NCBI GenBank assembly: GCA_036172245.1
Contig: JAYWIR010000031.1
Coordinates: 1 to 64,000, forward strand
Direction of reading: 5' to 3'
Origin: Raillietiella orientalis
Taxonomy: Eukaryota
Length of the DNA: 64,000 bases
The notes under the pieces were generated by a model, which was not told the DNA's origin, ran no database searches, and worked only from the letters and a program-made list of their open reading frames with translations. A program made the position numbers and the translations under genes. Of the stretch, positions 1 through 28,553 are shown piece after piece (position 1 is the stretch's first letter; the number at the start of each line of letters is the position of its first letter).

Positions 1-29
1 TCCTTGGCGCGGATAGACGCAGAAACACG

Positions 30-3000
30 TCTGCACTGTACGAGCGCAAGAGATCGAACGGATCTCCGGAGGGCGGCTATGGTACAGGTGTGGGAGACCG
101 AAAAGTTGCGGTGTTGCCTACTTGCTTCGGCCAGCCGTCGAGGCCGCGGCTCGGGGCGTGCGGTTCGACGATCACGGTCGTGTTAGCCAGCTGACACTCA
201 GGTGGTCCGACTCGATCGATCTGATCGTCACGAACGTGTACGCACCGAGCGGCAAGGACCTGATGAACAGCAGGGCGAGGAAAGAGTTTTTCCTAGCCCT
301 CCGGCGACACTGGCTGACCGAAGCAGGCGTGCGGAATGCCCATCTGGTTGCAGGCGATTTCAACGTTCGCCTGAAACCAGATGGGCAGAATCCCGAGCGT
401 GACCCGGTCAACGAGGTGTGCATGGCGGTGCACACCTGTAATTTGTTGGCCAGTGCACCGGGGATGGAAGAAAGCATCGACCACGAGTTTCTTGACGAGC
501 ACCTATGCCCTCGCGTGAGCAGGCGCTGCAAGTTACCGCGCGAGCTGTCCGACCATCGCCCGAAAGTTCTCTAGATCCCTCCGCGCGACAGGGGCCCCCC
601 CTCGTAAGCGTGGCGTCTCCCAGGGACTGGCTGAAGGTCCAGGACGCGGTGGAATATGTATGCACGTTCATACGGAGCTTCAGGAGGCGGACACTCCAGG
701 ATTGGGACCGCTTCAAGCGGTCGGTTTAGGAGTTCTGCGACCGGTTCCCTCTGCACCGCCTAGCTACGGGTTTTGGGACCGGGGTCCGTAACAAAGGAGC
801 CTATTTACAGGCCCGTCGTTACGCCAGGACCCCCGATATCCGCAGGCTGGCGAAATACAAAGCGGGAGCCGAGAGGCAAGCCTGGCAGTCCGGATCGGCC
901 AGCTTACTGGACGATCAGGGCCAGGAGCACTCGGCACCTGCCCAAATCCGCGGCCTGCTGCGGAGTTACTACTCTTCCCTGTATCCCAGGGCACCTCCGG
1001 AGAGGAACGTCTCACGACTCCTACTTCCGGAAGGCGCTTTAGCGATCGGGGAGGAGCAGAGAAAGACCCTCGACGAGCCTTTCACGATGGACGAGATCCT
1101 CTCGGCCATCGGAAAGCTCAAGAGGAGAAAGGCTCCAGGGAAGGATGGCCTGCCGCGGAGTTTTATCATACTTTCGCGGCTGAGCTTACCCACCTGGTAC
1201 AGCAACTCACCTTGCTGATACGCGAGACAGGTGACGTTCCCGCCTCGTTTCGTTCGGCAAAGGTGCGGCTCCTCCCTTAGGGAGGAGATCTGAGGAGCAT
1301 GAACAACTGGCGTCCCATCACAATAGTGAATGCGGACGCCAAGTTGCTAGCAAAGGTTTGGGCAGAGCATCTTGCACGGGTTGCCAACATCTTCATCAGC
1401 CCGGAACAGACATATGCTGTTCCAGGGCGAAGCATAGAGGCGAACCTGTACCACGCTTCCACCTGGCAAGAGCTCCAACATGAAAGGAGCTTGGTGCGCA
1501 GTCGGAATTCCGGTGCGTGCGCCGGCAAGGGGTTGGATGGTCGGGTAGGGGAGGGAGCCCTTGCGGTCGCAATCGACTTGCGAAAAGCATTCGATTGCGT
1601 CGACCAGAATCTCCTTCTGGAGCTTCTGGAACGCTTGGGCTTCCCGGCCTTATTAGTGGCCTATCTGCGCTCCAGCTGGCGCGACGCGCTCATCAATGTT
1701 ACTTTCAGCGGGCAGATCGTGCACAGCGTGCCGGTGCGGCGTGAGATCCGGCAGGGAGACAGCCTGAGCCCCTTGCTCTTCAGTACCTACGTTGAGTTGG
1801 TACTGAGAGCGTACAGGGGAACTCTGGCGCACCTGCCGCGCGACTGTGCCGGTACGCCGGCCGTTTCAGCGTACGCGGACGACCTTCTGCTGCTGCTCCC
1901 TATGTCCATCCCGGCTTCGGCAGTCGAGGAGTTCTTCGACCTGCTGCATCGGGGAACCGGACTTACGGTGAACAGAGCGAAGTCCTCCGTGATGCCAGTT
2001 GGTGTGGCGTGGGCAGGGTAGCAGGACTGGGTCTGTTTGGGGATCCCCACGGTGATGTACTTCAAGTACCATGGTGTACTGTTGGGGGACTACTCCCCTT
2101 CGGAAGCGTGGTCCTGCTGCCTGAAAAAAGTAGAGACGGCGATCGGCCCGTTCCGAGGCGGCAGGTTTTTCCTGCCTGAACGGGCCGTGGTTTGGAACAC
2201 GTTCGCGGCTCCTCTCCTCCGCCCCCTGCTTTTCGTTTTTCCCCCCACAGAGAGGATCAAAAAGCGGACAAAGGACCTCCTCCGTATCGCCCTTTGAGGC
2301 AACGGGAGGGCCCGAGTCCGCTTAAAGGACTTGTGCGCTCCTCGTCGGGACGGTGGTCTGGGCCTCCTGACGCTGGAGCGACTGGAGCTTCAGCTCCAGT
2401 TCCAAATGTCGGCACTTGTTCCAGAGTTGTGGTGCACCTGTTGGTGCGTCCCTGAACGTCTCCTCCTCCAGCAAGCCACCGGCAAGACGGGACTGACGTC
2501 GTTTCTTGCACTCCGTCGCCGCGTCAACCGATGCGAACTCCAGCTACGGAGGGTGGCTGCGCTGTATCGGAAAAACCCAGGATTGCTCACCTGTCGCCCT
2601 TTCAACGGTAGTACCTGGTTGCAGGAAACCGTTCGAACGTGGGGACAGTTCAACATGCAACGCTCCCAACAGGAACGAAGGTTCCTGTTTGGGGGTTACA
2701 GAAGTTGCACGCTCCGCGAGATCCTGGAGGATCCAAAGAAGAGAGCGTGGGCAGGAAGAACCCCCCTCGCTGCTGCGCTGCCCTCCCTGATGGAAGATCT
2801 GGACAGCGATGTTGCGGCGAAGTTGGAGGTTTCAGTTCCAATCTCCAAAAAGGAGAAGAAGATAGGAGAGTGGAAGACGAGCCAGTTAACAGACGCTGCG
2901 TCCCCGAGTACGCCTCCCAATGGACTTCTGCGCTGGGGCGCGCTGCTCGATATTCCCATTGAACATCTGAAGTGGCCCCCGGTGCTCATGAACACTTCCG

Positions 3001-3688
3001 CCCTCCCCTTAAAATGGCAGAAGTCGGCTCTCCTGTTGCAGCACTGGGGACTCCCCTGCAACGCCCGCCGACACCACTGGACCTGGGGAGCGGTGGACCC
3101 CAATTGCGTCAGGTGTGGGGAACGGGAGTCCCTCCCCCACCTGCTTGTGGATTGTGTTGCCCTTCGGCCCCTTTGGTTCCTCTTTGCCGCGGCCATCGGA
3201 ATACTCTGCGGCAATTCCAGGGACGCACTGAAAGCCCTCTTCGTTGCCGACGCCCTTCGGCCAGCGGCCTCGTTAGCAGCTTTGTGCTGCCTACGCGGGA
3301 TCGTCACCGCTTGGAGCAAGGCTACGGGAGGATAACGCGACCAGGGTGCCATCCAGCCAGCCTCCCAGTTCCTGAGCAAAGCGTCCCGATGGCCCCACCT
3401 GGATCCAGGAATACACAAGGAGCTTGCCGGCATCCTGCAAAGGATGCAACGGCCCCACCAGCAACTGTGATCCCTTCCCTTACCCTCCCAAGTTTTCTTT
3501 TCTTTTTTGTTTTGTTTTTTGTTTTTTCCCCTTCCTCCTGCTGCCGTGGTGGACCGTATTGGTCTGCGATCCGGTGACCCGGCAGGCTCTGTGTTTCTTC
3601 GTGCGTGGCTGGAACAATGGTCCAGTCACCGCACGTCTTTGTAAATGTTTATTTTACAATTAACGCTCCGTCGAAATCCGGGTGAAAA
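30..3688 (+). mobile_element. L1/Tx1-type non-LTR retrotransposon, subfamily A copy 1 (5'-truncated, disrupted ORF2 plus complete 3' UTR)
   Basis: APE motifs NVYAP, GDFN and SDH (ORF 122-574); RT motifs NWRPITIVN, DLRKAFD, QGDSLSPLLF and YADD (1299-2021); C-terminal CxxC..ESxxH..C finger (2331-3335); several stops and frameshifts; 3' UTR ends ...ccgggtgaaaa at 3688. Confidence 0.93.
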
Positions 3689-4117
3689 TCGATTTGCATA
3701 AAGCATTCGAGTGTGTCGACCAGAGGCTCCTCCTGGAGCTCCTGGAACGCTTGGGCTTCCCGGTCTCTTTGCTGACCTACCTGCGATCCTGCTGGCGCGA
3801 CGCGGTCATCCAGATCTTTTTCAGTGGACACACCATGCACGGCGTACCGGTGCAACGCGGCATACGGCAGGGAGACAGCATGACTCGCTTGCTCTTCAGT
3901 ACCTACTTCGAGTTGGTACTGAGAGCGTACAGGGAAACTCTAGCGCACCTGCCGCGCGACTATCCCGGTACGCCCGCGGTGTCAGCATATGCGGACGACC
4001 TACTGCTGCTGCTCCCTATGTCCACCCCGGCATCGGCGGTCGAGGAGTTCTTCGACCTGCTAAGTCGGGGAACCGGGCTTGAGGTTAACAGGGCGAAGTC
4101 ATCTGTCATGGCAATCG
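3689..4117 (+). mobile_element. RT-core fragment of subfamily B fused to the 3' end of A
   Basis: DLHKAF...QGDS...YADD in ORF 3682-4185; near-identical to the reverse complement of 9484-9912. Confidence 0.9.
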
Positions 4118-4743
4118 AAAATGGAGGGTTTCGGCCACAGTACGTGCACCTCACCGTATTTCCGCAATTCCTCACCAACCGCTGACCGCGTCATGCGGCT
4201 GGTGATGCCAGTCATGTGGTCCACCACGGAGCGGTCCATTGATACTGGCAGGATCTTGCGGCCGTCTACGTTCAGCGGCGCATGGATTAGGCGGTGAGCC
4301 AAGGTGACATCTTTGCAGACCACCTCGACCCGCTGCCCGCCGCCGAGGACGGAGAGGCCGTCCAGATCCTTCTCATTAACGTTCGCGTCCTTCAACGCTA
4401 TGCCGAAGGCGCGCGCTGTCCGGCCGTCGAACAAGTTGCCTACCTGGTAGACAAGCGATGGCTTGTACCCGGAGGCCTTGTATGCGGCCATCTCCGCCAT
4501 GGCTTCTGCGCTGGGCGCGGCCACCATGGCGCTCCATGTCCTCGGCGTGGCCGGGGATGATTCCGGGGCGGCTGCCCCTGCTCCAGTAGGCTGTGGGGGC
4601 GAACTAGCCTCCCCCACTCCCACCTCTATCGCGGTGTCCTCTGGCGTCGTGACCATTGGACATCGACGATGTACACAAAACACCACACACAAGAAAGCGC
4701 TTTCCTACTACCCTTTGAGGAGTGAAGGAAAAACACGTCCTCC
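4118..4743 (-). mobile_element. 5' end and ORF1 N-terminus of an L1/Tx1 element (segment C)
   Basis: MVTTPEDTAIEVGVGEA...YKPSLVY...DRSVV is homologous to the ORF1 start of element G (MAEMPEDTAMEVGGGEA); GGACGTG motif at 4734-4740. Confidence 0.8.
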
Positions 4744-5030
4744 AACTGGCCGTGGAGGTTGCTGGCTGCAACGAGGCTGCCAGATCCTCCGTGGCTCGCG
4801 CGAAGGCTACGTCATCGATGGTAGTGTCGATGACGGACGCCGCCGCCGGCTCGCTCCCCTCGCTGTTGACAGAGTCAACAGAGGGGTTGTCGTCGGTAGC
4901 GGCGAGTTCTTTCTCGCAGCTGTCGGGAATACGCTCCACGACAACGGCCGCACGGACCTGTTCTGTGTTGCTCCTCGAGCGTGATTCCTTTCCGTCTTCT
5001 TGTGTGAAGTGTGCTCGAGTGCGTCCACTG
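4744..5030 (-). mobile_element. Internal ORF1 fragment of subfamily A
   Basis: VERIPDSCEKELAA...FARATEDLAASLQP matches 14090-14268 with few substitutions; right boundary approximate. Confidence 0.8.
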
Positions 5031-7780
5031 GAATTTTCACGGAGGCCCTGCAGCAAAAGATGGATGTGGAGGCTGCTACTGGCAGTAGAGACTCTACTCC
5101 AGATGTCCGCTCCGCCTCTGATTCTTGTGTCTCGCCACCGGCGAGAAGCTTCGCCGCCGTCGTCAAGGCGGCGGCAGCCAACGGAGCACCGCCCGACGAA
5201 GCGGAGCTGCAGGCATATGCGGCCCATGGCTACAAGTCTGCGCTCTGCTATCCGGTGAGTGCTGCGATCTCCGACGGGGTCGGAGAAAATCTATGGGATG
5301 AGCTTTTGCGCGTCGGGGACCGACAGGACGACCTCCTGGCCGTCATGCCGGTTAACGCGCTCGGACACTGGAAGGTGGACTGCAAAGAGGCATCCCTAGT
5401 CCAGAGCCTTCTCCGAACCCCGCTAAATATCTGCGGGAAGGTAGTCGTCCCGTCGGCCATGGACCAGTCGTTCGTGGTCCGATTGTCCGCCGTCCAGGAC
5501 ACGCCCGATCGCGTGCTCGTCGCTGCACTTAGTGCATTCGCCACGGTGCACGCGCTGTGGAGAGCAGACAATCCGATCAAAAGGATTGCATCTCTTTACA
5601 GCAGACTTTCCATGGCGCGTGTCACCATGGCGGATAGGAGGCAAATGCCTCCGCACTTTCAGGTGGGCGATGCGATCGTCCACCTTAAATTTGCCGGTCA
5701 GCGACCGACTTGCGGCATTTGCGGTGCAGAGGGCCACCGTCCGTGGACGTGCCCTTCACGCAACTGCCGCTATTGTAAACAGCTTGGCCACTCCATCAAA
5801 GAGTGCGCCGAGCTGAAGAGAAAGAAGCAGGCGAAAAGCCGCCAACAATCTACCCCGTCCGCCCCGAAAAGATCCCCCGTTGTGCCACGGGAGAAATCGG
5901 GCGCGAAGGGCGGGGCATCTTCGAGTGGTGGTTCTGCGAAAAAGGGCGCGGTTGCTTCAGGGAAGCCACCATCCCAGACAGCCGCGCAGACGGGAAAGTT
6001 GCCACGTCGCCCTGGGGGCAAATCGCCCCCTCCGAAGCAGCCTAAGAGTGCGGGCACGCACTCAATCAAGGCTGGTGAACCGTCCGCGTCCGCTTGCGCG
6101 TCCAGCGGAGCACACGGGAAACCGTGCGCGGTAACCCTCGGAGCTGCCTCTGAACGGCACTCTCCTCTTACGGCGGTGGAGATCACGTCTTCCACGCCGA
6201 AGGCACGAGCAGCGAAGGCTGCAATAGCGCCTCGCGGGACGACGGCAATGACCGCCGTTTCGCCCGCATCGGCTAAGGAGCAGGTGCAGTGCGTAACGGG
6301 GACGGAGCCGTCTCCCGCCGCTAGCGCGAAACGTGAGCCGGCATCTCCGGCCAAACAATTGAGGGAGGCGTCGTCCTCCCAGGAAAGCGTCCCCGACGCG
6401 GGCTGTAGTCGCGTCTCCAGGACGCCCACAAAGGGGAAGAAGAAGGTTGACCCTTCAATATTCCCCATCCTTAAGGTGGGTGGGAGGCAAAAGAGAAGCA
6501 CGGCGAAGAAGGTGCGTACCCAGGTACGCACTACGGCTGCGTGCTCTGTCTCTGTCGCTTCGCGCGAGAGAGCGGCTGCGGAAGCCAAAGCTCCGGAAGC
6601 TGCGTTGGCGACTGCGACAACTTCCTCGCGGGCAGGGCAAGCCTCCACCTGCCGAAACAAAAAGAGACTGGCAAAACGTCAGTCTCGCGCCAGGTACTCG
6701 GAATCCGAGGTGGAGTCCGAGTGCAAACAAATGGGGCGCGCATCCCGGGGTAAGCCGGTAGCGCGCCGGGCTAAAGTGCGAAAGCACGATCCTGTTGCCG
6801 GATGCGGTTCCGGTTCCTGCACGGAGACCGAGGCGATGATCCTCGGCTCTTAGGACTCAGCTGGGCGCGATGTGGCGGCGAAATGGAGCGATTCCGCTTC
6901 CCAATCCGCTCTCCTACCAGCTGACTTCTCGCCGGACTGGGCGAGGAGCACGCCGTCATGTCCGCAGCAGTGATGCGTGGACTCGCGTCCGCTCGTCGAG
7001 TCAGCGTGGCCTGTTGGAATGTCAACGGGCTACGTGATGCTGACAAAAGTCGGATGGTTGCCAACGCTTTGCGCGCGTTCGATCTGGTGCTGCTGCAGGA
7101 GATACATAGCATCTCCAAACTGCAGGCATCGGATCTGGAAGAGTGCGCGGGCGGGACGCTACACTGGCGGCAAGGCTCCGCCCACACGTGTGGAGTCGCG
7201 TTCCTCGTCCGAGGCAGGGTGGCGGAGACGGTGCGGAACGTTTGTTTCGACGAGGAAGGTCGTGTGGGCCAACTTGTCCTCAAGTGGTCCGAATCGATCG
7301 ACCTGTTCGTTACGAACATCTACGCGCAGAGCGGCGACCGGCATTACGCCCTGCGACTTGCATTCCTGGGTGGCCTGCGCAGCCGCTGGCTCGCTGACTC
7401 CGGCCCTAACGTGGCGCACCTCCTTGCAGGAGACTTCAACGTCCACCTGCTAACAGAGGAGAGATGCCGCTTGAGGGAGAAGAAACTGGTGAGCGAGGTA
7501 TGCGCGTCCGTGTGCGTGCAAAACTTGCTTGCTGGTGAGCCCGGGATGGAGAGATCGCCGGACCATGCGTTCCTCGATGAACACCTGCTCTCAAGAGTAG
7601 GTCGGAGAGGGCGCCCGCTGTCCGCGATTCCGGATCATCCCAGACTGGAATTCGAGCTCCTCCCGCCTGGCAAAGGGCCTCCGATGAATGTCTAAGGGTT
7701 GCCGGCCGACTGGTTTAGCAATTCGGAGGCGGCGGAGCATCTTCGCCAACACCTCCGGGGCTTCGCCATCCGTGAACTCG
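5031..7780 (+). mobile_element. Subfamily D element: ORF1 plus endonuclease domain, 3'-truncated
   Basis: ORF1 with two CCHC knuckles (CGICGAEGHRPWTC, CRYCKQLGHSIKEC); ORF2 start with WNVNG, LQEIH, NIYA and GDFN. Confidence 0.92.
5060..6973 (+). pseudogene. ORF1 (gag-like nucleic-acid-binding protein) of element D, with premature TAG at 6851
   Basis: Long ORF with RRM-like region, two CCHC knuckles and a basic low-complexity tail; the frame continues past the 6851 stop to TGA 6971-6973, which overlaps the ORF2 ATG. Confidence 0.8.
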
Positions 7781-9912
7781 ATTTTCACCCGGTTGCGCCG
7801 GGGCGTTTATTCTTTAGAATAAAACAAACGTTGGTGGCTGACCAGGTGGTCCGACCACGTACTGGTATACAAAATTAAGCCTGCCGGGTCACCGGTTCGT
7901 ATTCCGGCACGCTCCACCACGACAGCAGAGGGGCCAAGGACAAAACAAAAAATAAAACAAAAAAAACAGAAATATATAAAATCAAGATCTGAGGGGCACG
8001 GGAAGGGATCACAGTCTGCTGTGGGGCCGTTACATCCTTTGCAAGATGCCGGCAAGCTGTTTTTGGATGTTTGAATCCAGATGGGTCCATCCTGTCGCCG
8101 TCCGCATAATTTCGGCTGCGCACTGGACGGCACCCCTATCGCGAGGTCCTCCCGTTGCTTTGCTCCATGCAGCGATGATCCCGCGAAAGCAGCACAGAGC
8201 TGCTAACGCGGCCGAGGGCCGAAGGGCGTCGCAAACGAAGAGGGATCTGGTTGCGTCTCTGGGGTTGCCACAGGGGTTACCGATTGCCGCGGCAAAACGG
8301 TTCCAAAGGAGCCGAACAGCCACACAATCCAAAAGGAGGTGAGTGAGGAACTCCCGTTCTCCACACCTCGCACAATTAGGGCTCACCGCTCCTCAGGTCC
8401 AATGGTGTCGGCGGGCGTTGCAGGGGAGTCCCCAATGCAGCAACAATAGCGCCGACTCCTGCCATTTTAAGGGGAGGGTGGAGGTGTTCATCAGCACCGG
8501 GGGCCACTTCAATTGTTACCGCGGTACATTTAGCAGCTCTCCCCAGCGCAAAAGTCCAATAGCGGTGGTAGTCCGGGACGCTGTATCGCAGAGAATTCCC
8601 GTTTTCCATTCCCCGATCTTTGTCTCCGTACCGGAGATTTTAACGTAAACATCCCATTTCGCAGCAGTGTTGCCGTTTAAATGTTCCGCGAACAAAAACA
8701 GCATTGCAAGGAGGGGAGTTTTTCTTGCCTACGCTCGTTTTTGGGGGTTCTCCAGGATCTCCCGGAGCGTGAGGCGGTCATTACGGGCGAAGAATTGTCT
8801 CTGCTTTTCTTGGGTGCGTTGCTTGTCGCTCCTTGCCCACGTCTGAACCGTTTCCTGCAGCCATGCAGGTCCGTCAACGGGGCGACAGCAGAGCCATCCT
8901 GCGTTCTTCCTCATCAGATCAGCCACTCTCGGTAGCTGCAACCAGCAGTGACCGACTTGGCGGCGACGACGGAGCGCAAGGAAGGAAGACAGTCCCACCT
9001 TGCCTGTAGCCTGCTCGACGAGGAGACGTTCGGGCTCGCACCAACTGCTACTCCAATATTTCGCCACTAGGGCGAGTAACCGAAACTGGAGCTGGAGCTC
9101 CAGCCGCTCTAGCGTCAGGAGGCCGAGACCGCCGTCCCGACGCGGAGCGCTCAAGTCCTCAAGGCGGACTCGGGCCCTCCCATTACCCCACAGCGCAATC
9201 CTTAGGAGGTCCTTCGTCCGCTTTTTAGTTTCTGGGGTGGGGGGACAAACAAAAAGCAGGGAACGGAGGAGGGGAGAAGCGAATGCGTTCCACACCGCGG
9301 CCCGTTCCGGCAGGAAAAACCTGCGGCCTTGGAACGGGCCGATCGCCGTCTCTACCTTTTGAAGGCAGCTGGACCACGCATCCGAAGGGAGATAATCACC
9401 CAACGGTACACCGAGGTACTTGAAGTACCATACCGTGGGTATCCCCAAACGGACCCAGTCCGGCTGCCCTGCCCACGCCACACCGATTGCCATGACAGAT
9501 GACATCGCCCTGTTAACCTCAAGCCCGGTTCCCCGACTTAGCAGGTCGAAGAACTCCTCGACCGCCGATGCCGGGGTGGACATAGGGAGCAGCAGCAGTA
9601 GGTCGTCCGCATATGCTGACACCGCGGGCGTACCGGGATAGTCGCGCGGCAGGTGCGCTAGAGTTTCCCTGTACGCTCTCAGTACCAACTCGAAGTAGGT
9701 ACTGAAGAGCAAGCGAGTCAGGCTATCTCCCTCCCGTATGCCGCGTAGCACCGGTACGCCGTGCATGGTGTGTCCACTGAAAAAGATCTGGATGAGCGCG
9801 TCGCGCCAGCAGGATCGCAGGTAGGTCAGCAAAGAGACCGGGAAGCCCAAGCGTTCCAGGAGCTCCAGGAGGAGCCTCTGGTCGACACACTCGAATGCTT
9901 TATGCAGATCGA
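7781..9912 (-). mobile_element. Subfamily B, 3' half (RT core, zinc finger, 3' UTR)
   Basis: ORF 8729-9919 with YADD and FKYLGV; CARCGERE..H..C at 8030-8386; AATAAA plus terminal hairpin at 7781-7811. Confidence 0.92.
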
Positions 9913-14268: not shown

Positions 14269-14990
14269 CTTGCATTCCTGTGTGGCCTGCGCAGCCGCTG
14301 GCTCGCTGACTCCGGCCCTAACGTGGCGCACCTCCTTGCAGGAGACTTCAACGTCCACCTGCTAACAGAGGAGAGATGCCGCTTGAGGGAGAAGAAACTG
14401 GTGAGCGAGGTATGCGCGTCCGTGTGCGTGCAAAACTTGCTTGCTGGTGAGCCCGGGATGGAGAGATCGCCGGACCATGCGTTCCTCGATGAACACCTGC
14501 TCTCAAGAGTAGGTCGGAGAGGGCGCCCGCTGTCCGCGATTCCGGATCATCCGAGACTGGAGTTCGAGTTCCTCCCGCCTGGCAAAGGGCCTCCAATGAA
14601 TGTCTGGAGGCTGCCGGCCGACTGGCTTAGCAATTCGGAGGCGGCGGAGCATCTTCGCCAACACCTCCGGGGCTTCGCCATCCGTGAACTCGAGGACTGG
14701 GACGATCTGAAAAGATCGGTCCGCGAGTTCTGCTGCCGGTTCCCTTTGCACCTGCTGCCCCGCGGCTTCGGGGAGGGTGTCGCGAACAGCAGATCCTATC
14801 TGCAGGCGCGTACCTTCTCCCGATGCCCGGACGTTCGGCGTCTGGCGGAGTACAAGGCCAGGGCCGAGCGCCAGGTTAGGCAGTCTGGAGCGGCTTGTCT
14901 GCTCGATGACGCTACCCAGGAATGTTCGGCTGCAGCCGAAGTACATCGCGTAGTCAAGCGCTACTACTCCTCGTTGTATGCGGAGGAGCC
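14269..14990 (+). mobile_element. Second fragment of subfamily D (EN C-terminus and linker)
   Basis: 14269-14692 duplicates ~7357-7780 (AHLLAGDFNVHLLTEERCRL...) and then continues further into ORF2. Confidence 0.9.
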
Positions 14991-17900: not shown

Positions 17901-20590
17901 CATGCCTCTTTCACCCGCGACCGATCCGCCAGGGACCTCGTTTAGTTGGAAAGCAGGTGGACGTTGAAGTCCCTGCGACGAGATGTGTCACTCTGGCTCC
18001 GGAGTTCCTGAGCCATTGGCTCTCCAGCACATCGAAGAACTCGATTCTTTCGGCGCGCAGATGAAAGCCGCTCGGCGCGTAGACGTTCGTCAGGACGAGG
18101 TCGATTGAATCTGACCACTTGAGTACAAGTTTGCCCATTCGCCCTTCCTGGTCGAATCGAACGCTGCGCACCGCTCCCGCCATCCTACTATTGACGAGAA
18201 AACCGACTCCGCACGATTGTGCAGAACCTTCTCGCCAGTACAGAGTGCCACCCGCGCGCTGTTCGATTTCGGCAACCTCCGCATCGGAGATGTAATGCAT
18301 CTCCTGAAGTATCGCCAAATCGAAATGCCGCAGGGTGTCTGACACGTCGCGCCTCTTTCCGTCCCTGCGCAGCCCATTGACGTTCCAACAGGCTACGCTG
18401 AATCGACGAAAAGAGGCGACTTCCTGCATTAAGGCTGGGAAGGTGAGCACAGATTTCTCGCCTTGTCCGGCGAGTGGTCACGAGACAGAGCGGTCGATCT
18501 CAGAGACTGGAAATCTCCATTCGAAGCCGCACTGCTTGTTGCCGGTAGCTCAGAGGTGAGGTCCTTTTCCTCCTCTTTGCTCCCCAGCAACAGTTCCTCC
18601 TCAGCAACCACGCGCTTGCGGGTCTTCGGGAGGCGATTGCGCGGTTTCGAACGGTTGTCGCGCTGTGTGCTCTTTCTGTCGGACTCTGGATCAGAATCCG
18701 ACAGTCGAGGGCTTGCCAGGCGTTGCTGCTGTTTCCCGGAATTAGGAAAATCGTTCGCTGCCTGTTTCCTAGCGCATTCTGCTACTGCGGCTGGGACTTT
18801 CGTCCTTTTAGCCGCAGCAGCAGCTTCCCGCTCCATCCGCGAGAGGACGACTGCGCAGGAGGAAAGAATCGCAATCTTTTTCTGGGAAGGTTTCGCGGGT
18901 TTGATTCGCCCACTCACCTTCACACAGAGCTGCGAAGACCTTGATGGTTTCTTTCTAATGATCTTTCTCACCTGCATCCAGCCGTCTTCCTTCGCGTCGC
19001 AGTTATCTTTGCCATCCTGAGATGGCGCTGCTTCCACGGATGTAAGAGGCGTTGCCTTGGCTGCCTCTTGGAGTGCTGCCTCCACGCAGGCGTAAGCAAC
19101 TTTTTTGCGATCGCGAGAGGCGCTGCCTCTTCCAGATCGGAGTGTTCGTGCGTTGCCTTTGCGACCGTTGGGGGCACTGCTGTAGCGGTTGTGCTCGCCC
19201 TAGCAGTTGCTTCCTTGGCCGCAGTAGGCGCTGCGTCAGAGCGCGAGGACTGCGGGTTTGCCGGCTGTTTCTTCGCGGCACTCGGTGCCTGGGGCACCTT
19301 GGCCGCGGTAGCTTCAGACGGCGCGGTGTTCTTTGCCCGCGGGCGCGTTTTTCCCTTATCGGGCGACCGACCGCATTCCGCGCCGCTCGTCGGGGCCTTG
19401 GTACGAGGCTTCGCGGTCGTGATGCCGACAGTAGGAAGCTTTTTGACCTTCGGCACAATGTCTCCTGCATTCAACAATTGGCTGCGAGGTCTCGTAGAAA
19501 GGTCGCATTCTTTGCGAGCTTCCTTCGGGTCGATAGCCGGAGGCTTTGCCGCGACGAGTTTTTTTGTGTTTTTCACCCCTTCTTTGTGGGGGCGAGAAAC
19601 AGTTTTTTGCACGTGCGTGGTCGCGGTTTTCGCAACGCTTTTTGAAGCTTTGATGTTTCTTTCTCTCGATTCGCGGCGATTATTCCGCGATGCGGAACGC
19701 GATTCGTTCCTGCGCTTTTCGTTTTTTAAAAGGAGCTCCGGGCACGTTCCTTTAGTGTGCCCGTGCTCGTTGCAGTAACGGCAAGCGGCCGAGGGACACT
19801 TCGTAATGCGGTGACCCTCCTGCCCGCATTCCGCGCATACACGCGTTTGCCCGGCAAACCACAGGCGGACGGTCATTCCATCCACCTGCAGTCGCGTGGG
19901 CATTGCACGGCGATCCGTCATCGTCACTCGCACTTGCGCGAGCCCGCTGTGGTGGTCTTCGAACCCTTCAGCAGGGTTTGGCAGTCTCCAAAGCGCGTGG
20001 ACGGTAGCGAATTTTTCAAGGGCCTCCACGACCTGTCGGTCCGAAAGGCCCTTGCTCAGTCCACTCAGCCGGACAACGAACGACTGATCCGTAGTGGTGA
20101 AGAGTATTTCCTGCCCACGAATGAGCAGCGGCGTGTGCAGCAAACGCTGCGTAAGGAGAGCGTCCTTACTGGACATCTCCCAGTAGTCGCACCCACTCAT
20201 GGGCATGATGGACTCCAGTTGGCCTTTTTGAACTCCAATCCGTTGGAGTTCCTGGCCAAACTCGCGCCCAACCCGCTCAGGCATAAGGACACTTACCTTA
20301 TACCTGAGTGCAGACGTGTAGCCATTTGCTACATACGCCTGAAGCTCAGAGCTGTCGGGCGAAGGTCCCATCGTAGCCGCGAGGGCAGCGACCTGGGCGA
20401 ATGTCTTCGCCGTCGGCGAGGACAGAGGCTCCTTGCTGGCAGCCGAAGCAGCCATTTGAGGAGCAGGTGGCGTTCCCTTCTTGCGGCTGATGTTCTTCTT
20501 GGCTCCCATTGCAGCACAGAAGCACAGCAGAACAAAAACACGCAAGAGCCAATCTACCGCGGAGCGACGCAAAAGCACGTCCGTACGCAA
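14991..20590 (-). mobile_element. Subfamily E, near-full-length but disrupted element lacking its 3' UTR
   Basis: ORF1 ~20509-18429 (two CCHC knuckles, frameshift near 19085); ORF2 18429-15140 with WNVNG, LQEMH, NWRP, QGDSL, YADD and CLRC..H..C, broken by stops and frameshifts. Confidence 0.93.
15043..15131. repeat. 41-bp tandem duplication
   Basis: cgaagcaggtctgtggcagtgttctgaggacgattaagtgc at 15043 and 15084, partial third unit at 15125. Confidence 0.92.
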
Positions 20591-22294
20591 CCGTCGCTGA
20601 TGCGTGAGACGGGAGATGTTCCCGCTTCTTTCCGCTCAGCAAAGGTGCGTCTCCTGCCGAAAGGCGGTGATTTGCGCCACCTCAGCAACTGGCGTCCGAT
20701 CTCTTTGGTGAATTCGGACGTCAAGTTGTTCTCCAAGCTATGGGTCGCGCGGCTGGGGAGAATCGCGGAGTCCTTGGTAAGTCCGGAGCAGACGTATGCT
20801 GTTCCGGGGCGGTCGATGGAAGCGAATCTCTTCTTCGCGCGAACATGGTTCGAGTTGCAGCAGCGCGTGGCGAAGCAGAGCCAGGCAGCCGAAATCGCCG
20901 CTGCCAAAGGTAAGCGGCGGTGTTCAAGGCACGATGGAACGCCGGGAGCCTTAGCGGTCGCCGTCGACCTCTGCAAAGCGTTCGACTGTGTAGACCAGCA
21001 ACTCCTCTTGGCGTACCCTCGCCATCGCAGCGAAGATGTGGAGCACCCCGTGGTGCATTCCGGCTAGCCTTCTCGCCAGTCGTGTGTCCCGGTGCGAGGG
21101 ACTTTCGTCTTTTCTTGTGTGCCCCGGCCGGAAGATCAGAAGATGCGGCCTACAGCTCGGGCGCATGGCATCGTTGGCCATGGAGAACAGCTGGATGGTT
21201 TGCTGCCCCGCCGACTCCTCCGCCTGGCTGGAGGAGAACATCGGAACCTGGGCAGTGGTGAACCAGAGAAGCCACGTAACGTGGAATCGTCTCCGATGCG
21301 GCCTCTACGCCCGCTGCACTCTGAGGAATTTCCTGGAGAATCCAGGTAGAAGCACGTGGGCAGAGACAACTTGCTTGGCTACGGCGCTGCCCTTCCTGAG
21401 GAGGGCGCTTTACAGCAGTCGGACGCCAAGGTGGCAAGTCTCCTGCTGCATCGAGGGACGGGAGAAGAGAATGAGCGGCTGGACCATGGGTCAACTGGCG
21501 GACGCCACGACCCCGAGCGTCCAGCCGCGAGGACTAAGAAGATGGGGCGAGCTGCTGGTCATCCCTACGGATGTGCTGAAGTGGCCCCTGCTTCTTCAGG
21601 AATCCAGGATCCTGCCCCTTAAGTGGAAAGAGTCGGCGTTGCTGTTGTTGCATTGGGGTTTACCCTGCAACGCACGCCGCTCCCACTGGACAAGAGGAGT
21701 TGTGGATCCTGCGTGTGTCAGGTGCGGAGAGCGGGAATCGCTCTCCCACCTTATTGTGGACTGTGCTGCCCTCCGTCCCCTTTGGGAACGGTTTGGGACG
21801 ACCCTCGGTCTCCCTACGGGCAGTTCCCCTAGAGACGTTTTTCGGCCCCTCTTCGTGAAGGACGCCCTGCAGCCAGCCGCAGCCATCGCAGCCTTGTGCT
21901 GCGTCCGAGGCATCGTGGCGGCATGGAGCGACACCAACAAGGAAGGAGTGGGTCAACACGCGAGGGATGTCATCCCATATGCCCAACGCTTCTTGCGGAG
22001 AGCTGCTGGATGGCCCCAACTGGGGAACATACGAATGGACCTCGAGGGCTTCCTTCAACGGATGGGCCCTCCTCTCAGCGAACAGTGATCCCTTCCCTGC
22101 CCTCCAACCTCTTTTGTTTGTTTGCGTTTTTATTTTTACTTTTGTTTTTTCCCCATCCCCTTTCGCTGCCGGAGAGTGCCACGCCGGGCTGCGTTCCGGC
22201 GTCCCGGTAGGTCCCGTGCATAAGGCCGTGAGCGGGGCCTGGTACCGCAATTGTAGAGTTTTTTATTAATAAACGCCCCGGGCGTACCCGGGTG
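20591..22294 (+). mobile_element. Subfamily F 3' portion with internal deletion of the RT core
   Basis: LMRETGDVP...NWRPISLVN...DLCKAFD jumps at ~21010 to the post-RT region (QGD and YADD missing); zinc finger; stop at 22088; 3' UTR, AATAAA 22268 and terminal hairpin. Confidence 0.9.
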
Positions 22295-25005
22295 GCAACT
22301 CCAAATCCCCGAGGCAGGCGGTGCAAAGTGAAATCCTCGCAGAACTCGCGGACCGAGACCTTCATGCGGTCCCAATCTCCGAGGTTGCGGAGGATGACGC
22401 CTCTCAGGAACTGACGGAGATGTTCCGCCGCACCGGAGATGCGCGTCCAGTCCCCTGGCATACGCCACGCCCTGGATGGTGGTCCTTTGTCGCGTGGCAT
22501 AATTTTGATCATCAACCGGAAGTGGTCCGATAGCGTCGACGGAAGTTTCCCTCGTCTGCCGACCCATGGGCACAGGTCGGCGTCAAGGAAGACGTGGTCT
22601 ACGCTTTGGGCCATTTCCGGTAGGTCCCCCAGCAAGTTGCGCGTACGCATAGCGGCGCACAACTCGTTGGTTGCGTCTTTTTGCCTGCAAGGCACACCTG
22701 AGAGCAGGCGGATGTTGAAATCCCCACCGATCAGATGTGCCTTGCGTACGTTTGTATCCGCCAGCCAGTCGCGCTTCAGGGTTTCGAGGAACCGGGAACG
22801 TTCCCCGTACCCGCGTCCTCCGCTCGGAGCGTACACATTAGTCACGACAAGGTCGATCGAGTCGGACCACCTAAGGATAAGCTGGCCAACCCGACTGTCC
22901 TTGTCGAATCGTACGTCCTTGACGAAGGAAGCGACTGCTGGCTTCATAAAAAACGCGACGCCACAGGTGTTGCGAGCGCCGCATTGCCAAAATAGACGAC
23001 CCCCTGCGATCCTTTCGATCTCCTGGGCGTTCTCCGCGGTGATCACGTGGATCTCCTGCAGGAGTGCCAGGTCGAAGTCACGCAGGATGTCGGCCGTGTC
23101 CCGCCTGTTGCCGTCATCGCGCAGCCCGTTGACGTTCCAGCAGGCTACGCGTATCCTACGGCGACAGGCGAGTCCAGGTGTTAATCCTGGGAAATTGGCA
23201 ATGGGGCTCCCGCCACCTTGTCGGGCGGGACGCTAGGAGGAGGGGGTGCGTCGCGCACCGCTTCTCCCTCCTCCATGGAGGACGAATCGTCGTCGGGGCC
23301 TTGCAGAGGAAGTAGGGGTTCACCCACCTGTACATCCTCCTCCATGGGGGTCGCTAGCTGCACGGTGTCGGGGAATGAGATATTCCCACCCTCGCTTCCC
23401 ACGCTGCCGGCTTCCCCCTCGGGGGCCGATTCATCCGCCTCCTTATTGATCCGGATGCGCCTCCTGGGATTCTGAGACTTCCGTCCCGTCTTCTTTGGTG
23501 ACGCCTTCGCTGAAGAGGACGCACTTTCGACGTCCGGATCGGCCTCACCTGCCTCCGGAACCTTCCTCGCGGCCGTCCTTCGCAAGGCTTTTCGCGAGTT
23601 CTTTTCACGGCCTTGCAGTTCAGCCGTGAGTTCTTCCACCGCCTGCTGGAAAGCGGCCTCCTCGATCGCGTCGAGCGTGGCGCGCGGTTCCCCCTCTGTT
23701 TCGCCAGAGGGTTCACCATCGACCGTCGCGGCTTCGGCGGACGCGAGGGGGGGGATTGCTCCCCCGGCGGCGGCATCGGGTGACTGCACACGTTCTAATT
23801 TTACCGAACACGCGCGGAGCTTTTCGCGGCACGGTTTTTCGCGCTGCGTTTTTGTTTTCACCGCGTTTCGTTCGGGACTCCAGGGATTTCTTCGTGGCTG
23901 TACCGTCTGCCAGCCTTCGCCGTCACCAGCGTCGTCGGGAGTGTTCTCAACCGACGTTTGCTGTGAGGGCTTAGGGACTGGCATCTGGGTGTTTACAGCC
24001 TGTTTCTGTGTATGCGTCTCTCCCGTGCGTTTCCCCTTTGCCTTTTTGGCAGCGGATGGGGACGGGATTTCTCTTCTTGGGCACACCTTACGGATGTGGC
24101 CCTTATTTCCACATAAGTGGCATTGGATGTTAGGGCACCGCTTTTTTAGATACCCTGTAGCATCGCAATGGCCACAATACTTGGGCTTACCCACGTACCA
24201 AACATCGACTTTTTCTTCGCCGATATTCAGTTTGTGGGGAAGCCCACCATGCTCTGGTAGGGTGACGCGGGCTGCGGCCATCCCACTGAATAGCCTTCCG
24301 TACGTTCGGAAGACATTGGGTTTGGCCCAATACGCGTGCACACTACTATGCTTCGACAGCTCCTCATGGACGCTGGTTTTGTCCATTCGGAGTGATACGC
24401 CCGTGAGGTGGACCACGACGGAGCGGTCCTCCGTCACAGGGAAGATCCTGTGGCCGTCCTCCGTAATAGGGGTGTTCAGCAGTCGCTGCGCCAGACTTGC
24501 CTCTTTGCATGTCAGCTCAACTCGCTGGCCCCACTAAGGACGGATAGGCCTAAAAGGTCTTCCTCCCTCACGTTCAGCCTTTGCAGCTCCATTTCGAAAG
24601 AGCGTGCAATTTTTTCATCAAACACACTGCCTACCTTATAGATTAGAGACGGCTTGTAGCCGCTGTCCTTGTAGGCAGTCTGCTCCGCCACTGCAGCCGG
24701 GGATGGTGCAGCAACGACGTCACTTCAACTCCTCGCCAATGGCGAAGAGGGTCGCGAAGGGGCGGTTGCCCCCGATTCCGATGGGGCAAGTGCCCCGGAT
24801 TCCGTGGGGGCAGATGCCCCCACTTTCATTGGTGGAGGAGTGCATGTCGCTTCTCCTCCTCCAACTTCCATCGCGGTGTCCTCAGGCATTTCTGCCATGG
24901 GACACCGGTGCTCCCACACACCATACAACCAACGAAAAGCTTCCCACTGACCAGTCCGTGGAGCGATGCGAAACCACGTCCGCTCCCTAGAACGACACGG
25001 GGAAG
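22295..25005 (-). mobile_element. Subfamily G: 5' UTR, ORF1 and endonuclease, 3'-truncated
   Basis: ORF1 from ~24899 to 23181 (disrupted; CGHC..C and CHLCGNKGHIRKVC knuckles); EN motifs NVYAP, GDFN and SDH in 22075-23046. Confidence 0.92.
24975..24981 (-). promoter_or_regulatory. DPE-like GGACGTG internal-promoter motif (also at 20576-20582 and 4734-4740)
   Basis: The same 7-mer followed by NTTT...TC(G/A)CTCC occurs near the 5' end of three diverged elements; it matches the RGWCGTG downstream promoter element known from Drosophila LINEs. Confidence 0.6.
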
Positions 25006-25582
25006 TTTTTACCCGGTCACGCCGGGGCGTTTATTCCTAAACACTTTGTTTTCGCGGTACGAGGCCCCGCTACGGCCAATAGTTCTTTGGACCTGCCGGG
25101 AAGCCGGCTCGCAGGCCGGCTTGACTCTCCTTGGCAGCGGAGGGGGTAGGGGGTAAAAACGAAAAGAAAAATAAAAGAAATAAACGAAAAGAAACTATTT
25201 GGAGGGCCGGGAAGGGATCACAGCCCGCTGGAGGAAGAGACCATCCTTTCGAGGATGCCCTCGAGGTCCCTCTTCATTGTTCCCAGATGGGACCAGCCGA
25301 TCGCGATTCGCAGGTATCGACCAGCGTGTACGATGGGATCCCTGTCGCTGCTTCCTCTGTTGGCTGTGCTCCACGCGGCCACAATCCCTCGGAGGCAGCA
25401 AAGTGCTGCCAGGGCTGAGGCTGGTGTCAGGGCGTGTCGCACGAAGAGGAGTCTCATAACGTCTCTGGGGGTGCTGCCTACCGGCATTGAGAGGTTCGTA
25501 GCAAAACGTTCCCACAAGGGCCGGAGGGCAGCGCAGTCCACTAACAGATGGGGGAGGGATTCCTTCTCCCCGCACACTGCAC
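25006..25582 (-). mobile_element. Subfamily H 3'-terminal fragment
   Basis: CAVCGEKESLPHLLVDC...LEGILERM, stop at 25218, then conserved 3' UTR and AATAAA/hairpin. Confidence 0.88.
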
Positions 25583-26188
25583 AGGGGGAAGTGTGAACGC
25601 AAACTGTGCCCGGTGTGGGGAGCGGGAATCCCTCCCGCACCTGTTAGTAGACTGTATTGCCCTCCGACCCCTTTGGAAACGGTTAGCCGAGACCCTCCGG
25701 TTGCGCAGTGGCAGCACCCCTAGGGACGTCATGCGCCTCCTCTTCGTGAGGGACGTCCTGCAGCCAGCCGCAGCCTTGGCAGCACTTTGCTGCATCCGCG
25801 GGATTGTAGCTGCCTGGAGCGGCGGCGATACAGGAGGAAGCAACCAAATAGACGTCGTCGAATACGCAGTTCGCTTTCTGGGAATAGCCTCCGATGGCCC
25901 CACCTGAGGTTATTCCGGAAGGACCTCGCCAGGATCCTGCGAAGGATGAACCCTCCTCCTGAGGGTCGTGATCCCTTCCCTTCCCCTCCAGAGTGATTTC
26001 TTCTTTCTTCTTTCATTTTATTTTTGTTTTTTGTTCTCTCCCAATCCCCCTTCGCTGCCAAGAGCGGTCCCGTCAGTACTGACGTACTGACGACCCGGCA
26101 GGTCCACCGACTGATTGGCCGTACTGGAGCTCCGTACCAGATTGTTCCAGGTAGAATTTTCAAATAAATTCTCCGGCTTGATCGGGTG
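25575..26188 (+). mobile_element. Subfamily I 3'-terminal fragment
   Basis: CARCGERESLPHLLVDC...; tgatcccttccc stop context near 25968; conserved 3' UTR; AATAAA at 26163. Confidence 0.88.
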
Positions 26189-26540
26189 TCAACGTCAAAA
26201 CAAACGTTTCGCACCGCTTCTGCCACCCTACTCCGAACAAGGAATGCTACTCTGCAGGTATTCTGGGAGCCTTGCCGCCAATGGAACGTCCCGCCTGCGC
26301 GACCTGCAAGATCGGTCGCTTATTGTTCGGAGATGGCGTGGATCTCCTGCAGCAGGACCAGATCGAAGTCGCGCAAGACGTTACCTACCAAGTGCCTCTT
26401 CTTGGCGTCTTGCAGTTGACGTTTCAACAGGCCACGCGGGCGTGACAAGATGCGAGCCCGCGCATTACTGCTGCGGACATGGCGACGCGTTCCTGGCCTC
26501 GTCCGGCGAGGCATCAGCCGGGAGCACGACAGATTGGGGA
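26189..26540 (-). mobile_element. Subfamily J fragment (ORF1/ORF2 junction and EN N-terminus); right edge of the array
   Basis: DAKKRHLVGNVLRDFDLVLLQEIH, similar to element D; TAATG at 26467-26463. Confidence 0.82.
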
Positions 26541-26599
26541 GCGGTTCTGTCATAATCACCAAATCGCGATTATGCGTTCACGTTGCGTATTCGTTCCTC

Positions 26600-27660: not shown

Positions 27661-28553
27661 TTCTTGCTGGTATGTAGATAGATTTCTTTATTTGATATTA
27701 TTATTATTGAAAAAAATATATTACACCTTCTTGAAAATTCTCAATGGTTGATGCACCAGACCAGAGAAGATTCTCATGCCATCCGACGTAACCAAGGCGA
27801 TAATCGGTAATCCACTGCTGCGATCTGTTTCGCCGCAATCTGTTTTTTGGCCGGGTCCGATGAAAACAGTCCTAAACCAAGCGGTCCGTACGTCTCACCG
27901 AAGTACAACATCGAGTGTCGCTTTCTTCGATCTGTAAAGTGGTTTTCCTCGTTTCTCTCGGTTTCTTGGTAACGGGCAGGTTGAGTAACTTGGGAATACT
28001 CACAACTATAACTTGGAAATACAAGTTACTCAATTTGGAAGTACAGCTTGCACAAAATCAATGAAATGCAGTTATTTGAAGAAGAAAAAAAGGGCTAAAG
28101 GGGCAAACATTGAACATGGAAAGGGGAAAAAAAAATAGACATGCTATTTGCTGTGAACATAAAGGGAAACATAAGGCATTTCTTTTCATAGATGATGTGT
28201 AAAATTATAGTCACAAAGTTTTTTTTTGGAAGGTTGGTACAAACAATTAGAAGCAGGGACTTAGTTATCAAAAGTGAACGAGTGTATGCATACATGACAT
28301 GAACCTTAACATACTACCATCTGCTTTTGTGCTTAAAGTCTGGCACAGTTGTATGAAACAATGAATTGTTTTAACATGAGCTATTGAACTTGAGAACAGT
28401 ATCTATTCTAGATCCACGATACCTACACCATCTATTATATTTTTCCCTTTAAGGAATCTTTGTAATTATATAAGCCTTCCCTTTCCAATTTAAAAAACTT
28501 TCATTTGTCCCTGAATGCTTATGTGCATTAAAGTATCAATATAGACAAAAACT

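Follow-up and report, generated by a model that had tools for sequence, protein, structure and literature searches.

A single-family mosaic of L1-like retrotransposon pieces beside gene-dense DNA in Raillietiella orientalis

The leftmost 26.5 kb of the window analysed here (the whole 64,000-nucleotide stretch of Raillietiella orientalis contig JAYWIR010000031.1, positions 1 to 64,000) is made of pieces of a single L1-like non-LTR family with a CCHC ORF1, an APE endonuclease, an RT and a C-terminal zinc motif. We prefer to read this block as a LINE-only transposon island, or nest, edging gene-dense DNA of a compact, TE-poor animal genome, a reading to which we give about an even chance, and the island as real yet of a fairly ordinary kind. 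At least 10 elements from at least six deeply diverged lineages of this GC-rich family, active over the same period, would have integrated serially, each either inside an older copy or next to one, through reverse transcription primed at the target or possibly at a break. Later changes at the DNA level would then have reshaped the patch: inverted duplication or gene conversion, microhomology-associated internal deletions, and the disappearance of half of every target that had been interrupted. The island may persist because insertion into a dead copy costs the host nothing, insertions in the compact neighbouring genes being purged by selection. What the sequence shows directly is the make-up of the block, the anatomy of its junctions, lineages that diverged under selection, and tracts of recombination; the order of events, the role of selection and any part in silencing we infer.

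Composition and boundary of the block

GC per 2-kb bin stays at 0.576-0.608 throughout 1-26000 and lies at 0.30-0.52 past 28 kb; the mean is 0.592 for 1-26544 against 0.403 for the remaining window. On its left side the block is open at window base 1 and continues beyond, and on its right it ends sharply at 26544/26545, with 26546-30000 having zero coverage by matches elsewhere in the window. Pfam matches to Exo_endo_phos, RVT_1 and zf-CCHC occur on the + and - strands, with zf-RVT under its cut-off. At strict thresholds 87.2% of 1-26540 has a match elsewhere in the window, superseding a lenient count of 97.3% that was inflated by tblastx sum statistics; the six stretches without a paralogue are ORF1 C-terminal halves and 5'UTRs of the copies called B, D, E and G below, collinear within their elements and for the most part in long ORFs. 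The block divides into 13 element pieces and two occurrences of a 191-bp piece, X, with about 10.4 kb on the + strand and 16.1 kb on the - strand, and all copies are truncated and/or carry stops or frameshifts. An earlier note on this DNA had described a two-stranded mosaic of some 13 segments from one family, every copy defective, with an abrupt switch to AT-rich gene-bearing DNA, and these counts agree with it on each point; it had overlooked that one of the defective copies, E, is nearly full length. Its proposed explanations, namely a lineage that targets its own relatives, a silencing memory locus, or a centromeric or subtelomeric array, find partial support. No other TE domain was found in the tested ORFs of the window, and no RNA gene in Rfam and tRNA searches of the sequence.

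CpG o/e is 0.98 in the block, with no depletion, against 0.27-0.49 in the depleted host gene bodies. From this value, and from long open stretches of 761, 622 and 310 aa, the copies appear to be young. The block might also act as a dual-strand source of piRNAs, keeping fragments of all the lineages and silencing those lineages, which we think improbable, and which would be compatible with a nest or with the homing origin discussed below. piRNA clusters are composed of defective TE fragments, and here such fragments lie on both strands, from every lineage seen, at a gene boundary, and without CpG depletion despite the depleted host gene bodies. The dual-strand clusters known so far contain numerous TE families, however, as opposed to the one present here, and DNA alone offers no cluster-specific feature. 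Since the block lacks the CpG depletion of the host gene bodies, any silencing would not go through germline CpG methylation.

Neighbouring host DNA

The neighbouring 37.5 kb has four compact genes, the nearest beginning 2.4 kb from the block edge, and one 0.3-0.5-kb relic of the LINE family, and lacks repeats and further TE domains. The relic is a decayed piece of RT (44532..45025, - strand; blastn 64-68%, phmmer 3.5e-7 to the RT of copy D) with GC 0.55, situated 18 kb into the host part. The wider tract at 38.8-48.2 kb (GC 0.49) was considered as the decayed remains of an older LINE patch and ruled out except for 44.5-45.0 kb. A PTPN9-like exon in the host part shows 33-43% identity among the matches listed, with arthropods best.

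We see no sign of a subtelomere and none specific to a centromere, and no telomeric or satellite repeats were found in the window. Zepp-type LINE clusters are said, in the title of a 2025 preprint, to be associated with CENH3. That the block marks the border of a centromere built from transposons nevertheless seems quite unlikely: transposon-cluster centromeres do recur across eukaryotes, as an atlas of centromeres describes them, and the block extends beyond the window to a full size larger than 26.5 kb, but LINEs make up just 1.3% of centromeric sequence in the same description (10.64898/2026.09.17.752431), a gene lies close to the edge, satellites are absent from the window, and the block has no centromere-specific feature.

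The abrupt change of GC from 0.59 to 0.40, together with the difficulty of assembling repeats, might suggest an artefact, either chimeric or mis-joined repeats or foreign GC-rich DNA fused to the host. We consider this very improbable, given that the junctions coincide with genuine element termini whose ends are conserved, that the duplicated parts are 2-12% diverged with indels and not collapsed, that a same-family relic sits well inside the host part, and that an independent DNA run has many copies 95-99% alike. That one run (Logan contigs, share 0.08), compared with 8501-28500, gives 263 pieces of related copies, with identities of at least 99% for 23, 95-99% for 93 and 90-95% for 147; it leaves the unique flank 26510-28500 nearly bare and provides neither an assembly check nor the flanks of other copies, and its apparent joints are paralogue switches among D-, C-, F- and J-like copies.

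The element pieces

Piece A (1..3686, +) extends past the left edge of the window and runs from mid-endonuclease of ORF2 to a 3' terminus with AATTAAC...CCGGGTGAA; it has Pfam matches for the endonuclease, RT and zf-RVT and 6 in-frame stops. Adjoining it is A' (3687..4117, +), an RT fragment of a C-type element that begins at RT motif A, with 84% identity to A 1571-1997 and 97.5-99% to C 9914-9484, of which it is a copy. Piece I (4118..4755, -) is the 5'UTR and ORF1 start of a G-like lineage, with its 5' end at about 4755-4762 and an internal cut at 4118, identified by 63-67% identity to 24318-24981 in the same orientation, a 5' motif in common and a tblastn match to residues 2-74 of G ORF1. 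The first copy of X (4749..4939, no strand assigned) follows, and is 93.3% identical to the second at 14076-14269; X has no further homology at strict thresholds. As a small-RNA gene target X was rejected, having no tRNA and no Rfam match at the gathering score, the single match with E<1 being ssnA at 20.7 bits against a gathering score of 37.3.

Piece B (4940..7781, +) has a 5' end with the 5' motif at about 4945, an open 622-aa CCHC ORF1 and an endonuclease, both with Pfam matches (zf-CCHC and endonuclease), and is cut at 7781 by the 3' terminus of C. C (7782..9914, -) runs from RT motif A to its 3' terminus at 7782, which reads AATAAACGCCCCGGCGCAACCGGGTGAAAA; it has 4 in-frame stops and 77% identity to D and A. 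D (9915..14075, -), recognised by Pfam and tblastx, has the end of ORF1, the endonuclease, RT and C-terminus (761 aa open) and a 3' terminus at 9915, with 3 frame changes and 1 stop in the endonuclease/linker part; 13871-14080 bears a weak likeness to the G ORF1 C-terminus. At 14076..15024 (+) the second X (14076-14266) is fused to H, a B-type endonuclease/linker piece starting from the equivalent of B 7355 and extending past the cut point of B.

E (15025..20590, -) has the 5' motif, ORF1, endonuclease, RT with 4 stops, and C-terminus, followed by a short 3'UTR with a 41-bp repeat in 2.3 copies and without a canonical terminus. F (20591..22300, +) runs from the RT start to a 3' terminus and has an internal deletion of about 0.76 kb, seen as a tblastx reference jump from 4227 to 4991 at 21010. 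G (22301..25003, -) is cut at 22301 by the 3' terminus of F and has an ORF1, an open endonuclease (Pfam 2.3e-13) and a 5' end that immediately follows the terminus of J. J (25004..25584, -) runs from the C-terminal zinc motif to a 3' terminus at 25004 and is 72% identical to the 3' end of F. K (25588..26199, +; 3' terminus at about 26192-26199) is the equivalent part inverted, head-to-head with J. L (26200..26544, -) is the endonuclease start of a B-like lineage, 73% identical to B 6894-7252, and adjoins host DNA, GC falling past 26544.

Family and lineages

The endonuclease at the N-terminus of ORF2 is APE-type (Exo_endo_phos E = 2.3e-13 in G and 1e-11 in B), and the RT is closest to L1-type RTs (RVT_1 E = 2e-20). 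Its best match of solved structure is human L1 ORF2p (1.4e-18, versus 8.5e-11 for R2), a comparison that cannot separate APE-LINE clades, as other such clades have no solved structure. zf-RVT scores 19.8-23.5 bits, under the 27.5 cut-off, with a CxxC...H...C motif visible; the domain is carried by 27/46 nearest relatives and, in a second set, by 6/12, and the atlas neighbours of ORF2 are RVT_1+zf-RVT. ORF1 is of the Type I kind with a CCHC knuckle (zf-CCHC 23.8 bits in B, over the 20.8 cut-off; atlas neighbours zf-CCHC/ZCCHC3-like), and no RRM was detected in it. The endonuclease, RT and ORF1 matches support assignment to the L1 superfamily, at the level of the L1/Tx1 group only; of the earlier L1/Tx1 label the superfamily part stands, and a place in the Tx1 clade specifically is no more than a possibility, the nearest proteins being unnamed and at most 38% identical. 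That limit holds for the proteins listed except two metagenome fragments; metagenome contigs add 7 loci at 25-32% identity, save for one 28-residue match at 57%, which are of no use for studying flanks. With RT identity of at most 38% to nearly all public proteins, the family is a previously unsampled one.

At least six lineages (A/D, C, E, F, J, K) can be told apart in the 3' region, at 61-77% nucleotide identity, in line with the earlier count of at least 5-6 diverged subfamilies. Between lineages dS runs from 0.59 to above 2 and dN/dS is 0.18-0.33, hence they diverged while active. A 3' hairpin shows conservation only, with 0 compensatory changes in 5 pairs.

Copying and junctions

Part of the mosaic is DNA-level copying, not insertion, a share that the earlier note had overlooked along with the deletions. 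Together, A and A' reproduce D and the start of C in inverted orientation, the region aligning to 13562-9484 at 95.0% identity over 4090 columns, with a gradient from 84-92% up to 97-100% across the common junction. H is 95.8% identical to B 7331-7781, with about 290 bp at 100% inside surroundings at 93-96%. H and F have internal deletions, the one in H with the microhomology TACGC at its junction. Pieces A, A' and H may be DNA-level copies and not insertions of their own.

Only 5 junctions in the block are canonical, meaning an intact 3' end against another copy: the termini of D/A, C, F and K adjoin internal endonuclease or RT positions, and that of J adjoins the 5' end of G. At none of the junctions in the block does the interrupted target continue beyond the insert, nor was any target-site duplication observed; the nest is therefore not a simple one, and a simple nested reconstruction, with elements removed in turn, fails at every junction. 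Three junctions are head-to-tail (D to C, A to A', J to G). Four are head-to-head 5'/5' and have no explanation, including J/K, where lineages 70% identical are cut within about 15 nt of an equivalent position; a fold-back duplication was ruled out there, at only 70.4% identity over 587 columns. It may also count against the LINE-nest reading, depending on the TE repertoire of the genome, that passive accumulation usually mixes TE classes and the block has one family.

Such a make-up might instead come from active homing, the family or its ribonucleoprotein preferring its own copies or their chromatin, with islands growing by self-nesting. We regard this as a possible but doubtful account. All 5 of the independent intact 3' termini lie within family DNA, in a block with at least six lineages yet one family, while the adjoining 37.5 kb received one old relic; but any junction within an all-LINE block necessarily meets a LINE, that relic does sit in host DNA, and selection by itself can yield an identical picture. 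Four of the termini meet a copy of opposite orientation, with the cut in an 830-bp endonuclease/linker stretch, and the C to B and D to C junctions both read GAAAA/TCGA. The four native target sites nevertheless have no convincing motif in common, so that the earlier suggestion of insertion into relatives stands for the 5 termini and not for sequence-specific targeting, and a Tx1-style sequence-specific endonuclease is not supported. An upstream GTC, tried as a shared endonuclease target motif, vanished once the K junction was re-placed. A and D sit at one shared target position, and the differences between them bear some mark of purifying selection (pN/pS 0.58 versus 0.81 under neutral simulation, p = 0.023); the position repeats only as a duplicated junction, however, and the uniform divergence there (4/219 in the 3'UTR, 7/430 in the flank) agrees better with the junction having been copied than with two independent insertions.

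X precedes two B-type copies, one of full length and the other truncated, at the identical nucleotide, and this, with the GAAAA/TCGA found twice, could hint at a site preference.

The window itself offers a LINE nest resolved cleanly and well, an L1-like family not sampled before, and gene bodies depleted in CpG that contrast sharply with a TE block that is not. If homing is true, it would be a tractable case of a retrotransposon finding a safe harbour in a compact genome.

Comparison with known systems

HeT-A/TART/TAHRE and SART/TRAS form telomeric LINE-only arrays in which 3' ends are joined to truncated predecessors, as in our head-to-tail junctions. A uniform head-to-tail order at a chromosome end is not what we find: strands are mixed, there is no telomere-type repeat in the window, and genes are adjacent. 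Dual-strand piRNA clusters likewise hold defective TE fragments on both strands, of which only one family is present here. The heterochromatic TE compartments of compact genomes such as Tetraodon and the heterochromatic TE clusters of Drosophila, as outlined in PMC8909793, also keep TEs outside compact gene regions and piled in blocks; the compartments mix many TE classes and minisatellites, and ours has one LINE family and no satellites.

The target-specific LINEs of the Tx1 clade have the L1-superfamily architecture and CCHC-type ORF1 seen here. Some of these families can target other transposons, which favours homing: in the accounts of PMC4494074 and PMC5203782, Tx1L goes into Tx1D, Tx1-Mar into Mariner-N4_AMi and Tx1-8_Crp into LTR elements, with Keno going into U2. 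In our block, by contrast, independent junctions have no recurrent target sequence and no RNA-gene or microsatellite target, and the family is GC-rich, whereas vertebrate L1/Tx1 families are mostly AT-rich (PMC7140322).

The closest analogue is Zepp/ZeppL of the green algae Chlorella, Coccomyxa and Chlamydomonas, likewise L1-group elements in single-family, tens-of-kb clusters at GC peaks. In Coccomyxa, Zepp is described as 26 nested clusters of 1.5-42.3 kb with 61% versus 53% GC (PMC3446292), which again favours homing. The present block also has a single LINE family and a GC peak; as to nesting, 3' termini lie inside other copies, yet no split target resumes. It differs further in its animal host with an AT-rich genome, in its CCHC ORF1 as against the HTH_1-like ORF1 of Coccomyxa Zepp (PMC5203782), in bringing at least six deeply diverged lineages together, and in having both orientations and rearranged junctions that are not cleanly nested. 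We think it unlikely that the block is an animal counterpart of Zepp/ZeppL. In such a system several active lineages of a sequence-isolated, GC-rich L1/Tx1-like family would seek out their own copies or chromatin nucleated by them; the resulting islands, each of a single family, would evade CpG methylation and might act as the cores of centromeres or supply small RNAs specific to the family. If homing and not selection explains the single-family make-up, Zepp-type self-nesting of LINEs would extend from green algae to animals.

Composition and borders of the block

The first 26,544 nucleotides of the window form a block with GC of 0.576 to 0.608 in all 2-kb bins of 1–26000, versus 0.30 to 0.52 from 28 kb on, and a mean GC of 0.592 versus 0.403 for the rest of the window. 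Long stop-to-stop frames on both strands contain Exo_endo_phos, RVT_1, zf-CCHC and, below its cut-off, zf-RVT. A lenient self-comparison covers 97.3% of 1–26540, a figure inflated by tblastx sum statistics, so strict thresholds were used instead; with these, 87.2% of 1–26540 matches a paralogue at another place in the window, against 0% of 26546–30000. The six stretches lacking a paralogue (4944–5107, 5945–6831, 13754–14071, 18571–19603, 20444–20548 and 23251–24077) are all 5'UTR or ORF1 C-terminal half of the pieces we call B, D, E and G, with collinear flanking homology and with long ORFs enclosing most of them. Since they are collinear and lie within elements, the block is gap-free family DNA, except for a 191-bp piece, X, that is present twice. 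The right border is at 26544/26545, and four genes lie beyond it. The alignment of pieces A and D is still running at base 1, so the block extends left past the window. The earlier note had described a gap-free single-clade mosaic on both strands, with all copies defective and an abrupt switch to AT-rich gene-bearing DNA; that observation is confirmed and refined, while the interpretation attached to it (self-targeting, a silencing memory locus, or a centromeric or subtelomeric array) is only partly supported.

Anatomy of the pieces

Copy E (15025–20590, minus, nearly full length) served as the coordinate frame, which was kept unaltered, together with pairwise alignments. From the left, the block reads A (1–3686, plus, mid-EN to 3' terminus), A' (3687–4117, plus, an RT fragment), I (4118 to ~4755, minus, 5'UTR and ORF1 start), X (4749–4939), B (4940–7781, plus, 5' end, ORF1 and EN), C (7782–9914, minus, RT motif A to 3' terminus), D (9915–14075, minus, end of ORF1 to 3' terminus), the second copy of X (14076–14266), H (14267–15024, plus, B-type EN/linker), E, F (20591–22300, plus, RT start to 3' terminus with an internal deletion of ~0.76 kb), G (22301–25003, minus, 5' end, ORF1 and EN), J (25004–25584, minus, zinc motif to 3' terminus), K (25588–26199, plus, the same element part as J, inverted) and L (26200–26544, minus, EN start), next to which is host DNA. 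No copy is intact, all being truncated and/or interrupted by stops or frameshifts, and the surviving long frames are RT to C-terminus in D (761 aa), ORF1 in B (622 aa) and EN in G (310 aa). E, G, I and B have a 5' motif in common. The same kind of 3' terminus, made up of AATAAA, a CCCGG...CCGGG hairpin and a brief run of A, is found in five lineages, none of which has a long poly(A) there; the hairpin is conserved, with 0 compensatory changes across 5 pairs. Short tandem repeats occur in the shortened 3'UTR of E (41 bp x2.3, 15043–15136) and near the 5' end of G (24 bp x2.3, 24767–24821), and a T-rich 12-mer is found two to three times in the 3'UTRs of A (3493–3525), C (7942–7964) and D (10076–10108).

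The two copies of X have identical ends and are 93–96% identical in sequence; beyond each other they show no homology, and Rfam gave no credible match. X stands once before a full-length B-type copy and elsewhere before a copy starting inside the endonuclease, at the same nucleotide. X may be a 5' leader specific to the lineage, in combination with a deletion; alternatively, it may be a target flank that both places share.

Family identity and lineages

The elements encode a CCHC ORF1 followed by APE, RT and a C-terminal zinc motif. Among solved structures the best match is human L1 ORF2p (1.4e-18, versus 8.5e-11 for R2), atlas neighbours are RVT_1+zf-RVT clusters and zf-CCHC or ZCCHC3-like clusters, and zf-RVT is present in 27/46 and 6/12 of the nearest relatives in two relative sets. 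An exhaustive HMMER search of 1.84 billion representatives gave 17485 matches at E ≤ 1e-3 and only 9 at ≤ 1e-30; the top two are fragments from metagenomes, one at 71% and one at 66% over 132 aa, and everything after them is at most 38%. Together these results support placing the family in the L1 superfamily, the level that covers L1 and Tx1; within it the family may belong to either. According to PMC5203782, CCHC-type ORF1 variants of non-mammalian animals are consistent with Tx1-like groups. Because L1/Tx1 elements of vertebrates are mostly AT-rich (PMC7140322), the 59% GC of this family is unusual.

The lineages are well separated, at 61–77% nucleotide identity in the 3' region (A/D, C, E, F, J, K) and 59–74% in the EN region (A/D, B/H, E, G, L), and all keep a GC of 0.56–0.62. 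Between lineages dS runs from 0.59 (C vs D) up to saturation and dN/dS is 0.18–0.33, which indicates that they diverged while active elements and not in place. The ORF1 C-terminal half (5945–6831, 13754–14071, 18571–19603, 23251–24077) has no paralogue even by translated search and stays open in B and G despite divergence; the ORF1 tail is hypervariable between lineages.

Junctions

In five canonical junctions a 3' terminus is found at an internal position of another piece, namely D meeting C and its copy A meeting A', C meeting B, F meeting G, and K meeting L. One junction is head-to-tail (3' end of J to 5' end of G), four are head-to-head 5'/5' (I with X-B, D with X-H, E with F, J with K), two are internal-to-internal (A' with I, H with E), and one joins block to host. 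At the block junctions the interrupted targets never resume past the insert and no target-site duplication is seen, so the block is not a clean nest, and its formation requires that targets were lost on insertion, that insertion was primed by breaks, or that the DNA was rearranged afterwards. J and K stand head-to-head though only 70.4% identical. Their cuts fall at nearly one and the same point of the element, to within ~15 nt, immediately ahead of the C-terminal CxxC...H...C motif, and this motif contains the near-palindrome GGGAATCCC.

Active homing of the family to its own copies would account better for the single-family make-up, and Tx1 families targeting U2 genes, microsatellites and other transposons are described in PMC4494074. 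GAAAA|TCGA reads at both the C–B and D–C junctions, and no convincing motif common to the native sequences of the four target sites was found. Homing is without sequence-level support in the window, and we regard it as unlikely.

Probable copying between pieces

A and A' together correspond to D and the initial 430 bp of C in inverted orientation, at 95.0% over 4090 columns. Identity climbs from 84–92% (A 1–1600) to 97–100% (2200–4117), and synonymous divergence is 0.11–0.17 in EN and 0.049 from RT to C-terminus, with 4/219 differences in the 3'UTR and 7/430 in the flank. Overall pN/pS is 0.58 versus 0.81 +/- 0.13 when neutral change is simulated for these codons (p=0.023). The low and even divergence across the shared junction is in keeping with gene conversion, or with break-induced copying, onto a relative that was older and had inserted separately; two separate insertions at one site match it less well and are less probable. 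B and H share ~290 bp at 100% (7353–7640 vs 14265–14552) within 93–96% identity, likely a recent gene conversion between copies 7 kb apart. H lacks the counterpart of B 4940–7354, with microhomology TACGC at the join. Not all of the pieces, then, are likely to be independent insertions.

Host part and CpG contrast

To the right are a DEAH-type helicase (28.9–32.4 kb, minus), a sugar transporter (37.3–38.8 kb, minus), a bHLH-PAS gene (53.1–54.4 kb, plus) and a CRAL-TRIO tyrosine phosphatase (59.6–61.1 kb, plus), an exon of which has only 33–43% identity to the proteins listed, with arthropods ranking top. We take the host to be a divergent bilaterian. Among 117 of the 151 listed ORFs of at least 70 aa no other TE domain was found, and the host part has no repeats of at least 40 bp. 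A decayed internal RT fragment of the block's LINE family stands alone at 44532–45025 (64–68% to block copies, GC 0.55); it has no 3' terminus, so simple 5' truncation on insertion does not explain it. The region 38800–48200 has GC 0.49, CpG o/e 0.86 and many overlapping ORFs on both strands, and shows no Pfam match, no repeats and no LINE homology save that relic. An assembly artefact is scarcely credible given bona fide termini, diverged duplicated parts and this relic in host DNA.

Three host gene bodies are strongly CpG-depleted (o/e 0.49, 0.39 and 0.27 at 28900–32420, 53106–54440 and 59643–61082), with a TpG/CpA excess of 1.25–1.49, and the LINE block (1–26544) is not depleted, at 0.98. 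Invertebrate gene-body methylation is the basis for reading CpG depletion in genes. The contrast suggests germline methylation on genes but not on the block, or copies too young to show depletion. A piRNA source would be compatible with the window and is, in our estimate, improbable; a centromere edge would be compatible too and is a good deal more doubtful. Satellites and telomere-type repeats were not found in the window.

Origin of the block and the nearest known system

The reading we put first, at about an even chance, is a LINE-only island. Several active lineages would have inserted one after another into earlier copies, such insertions being retained because, beside compact genes, they do no harm, and ectopic recombination would then have reshaped the island. 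Compartmentalisation of TEs in compact genomes is treated in a review (PMC8909793). The closest known system is the Zepp cluster of Coccomyxa, for which PMC3446292 gives 26 clusters of 1.5–42.3 kb, nested, one per chromosome; related papers deal with ZeppL of Chlamydomonas. Like those clusters (61% vs 53% GC), the block is GC-rich, but they are nested as described there, whereas the block is not a clean nest.
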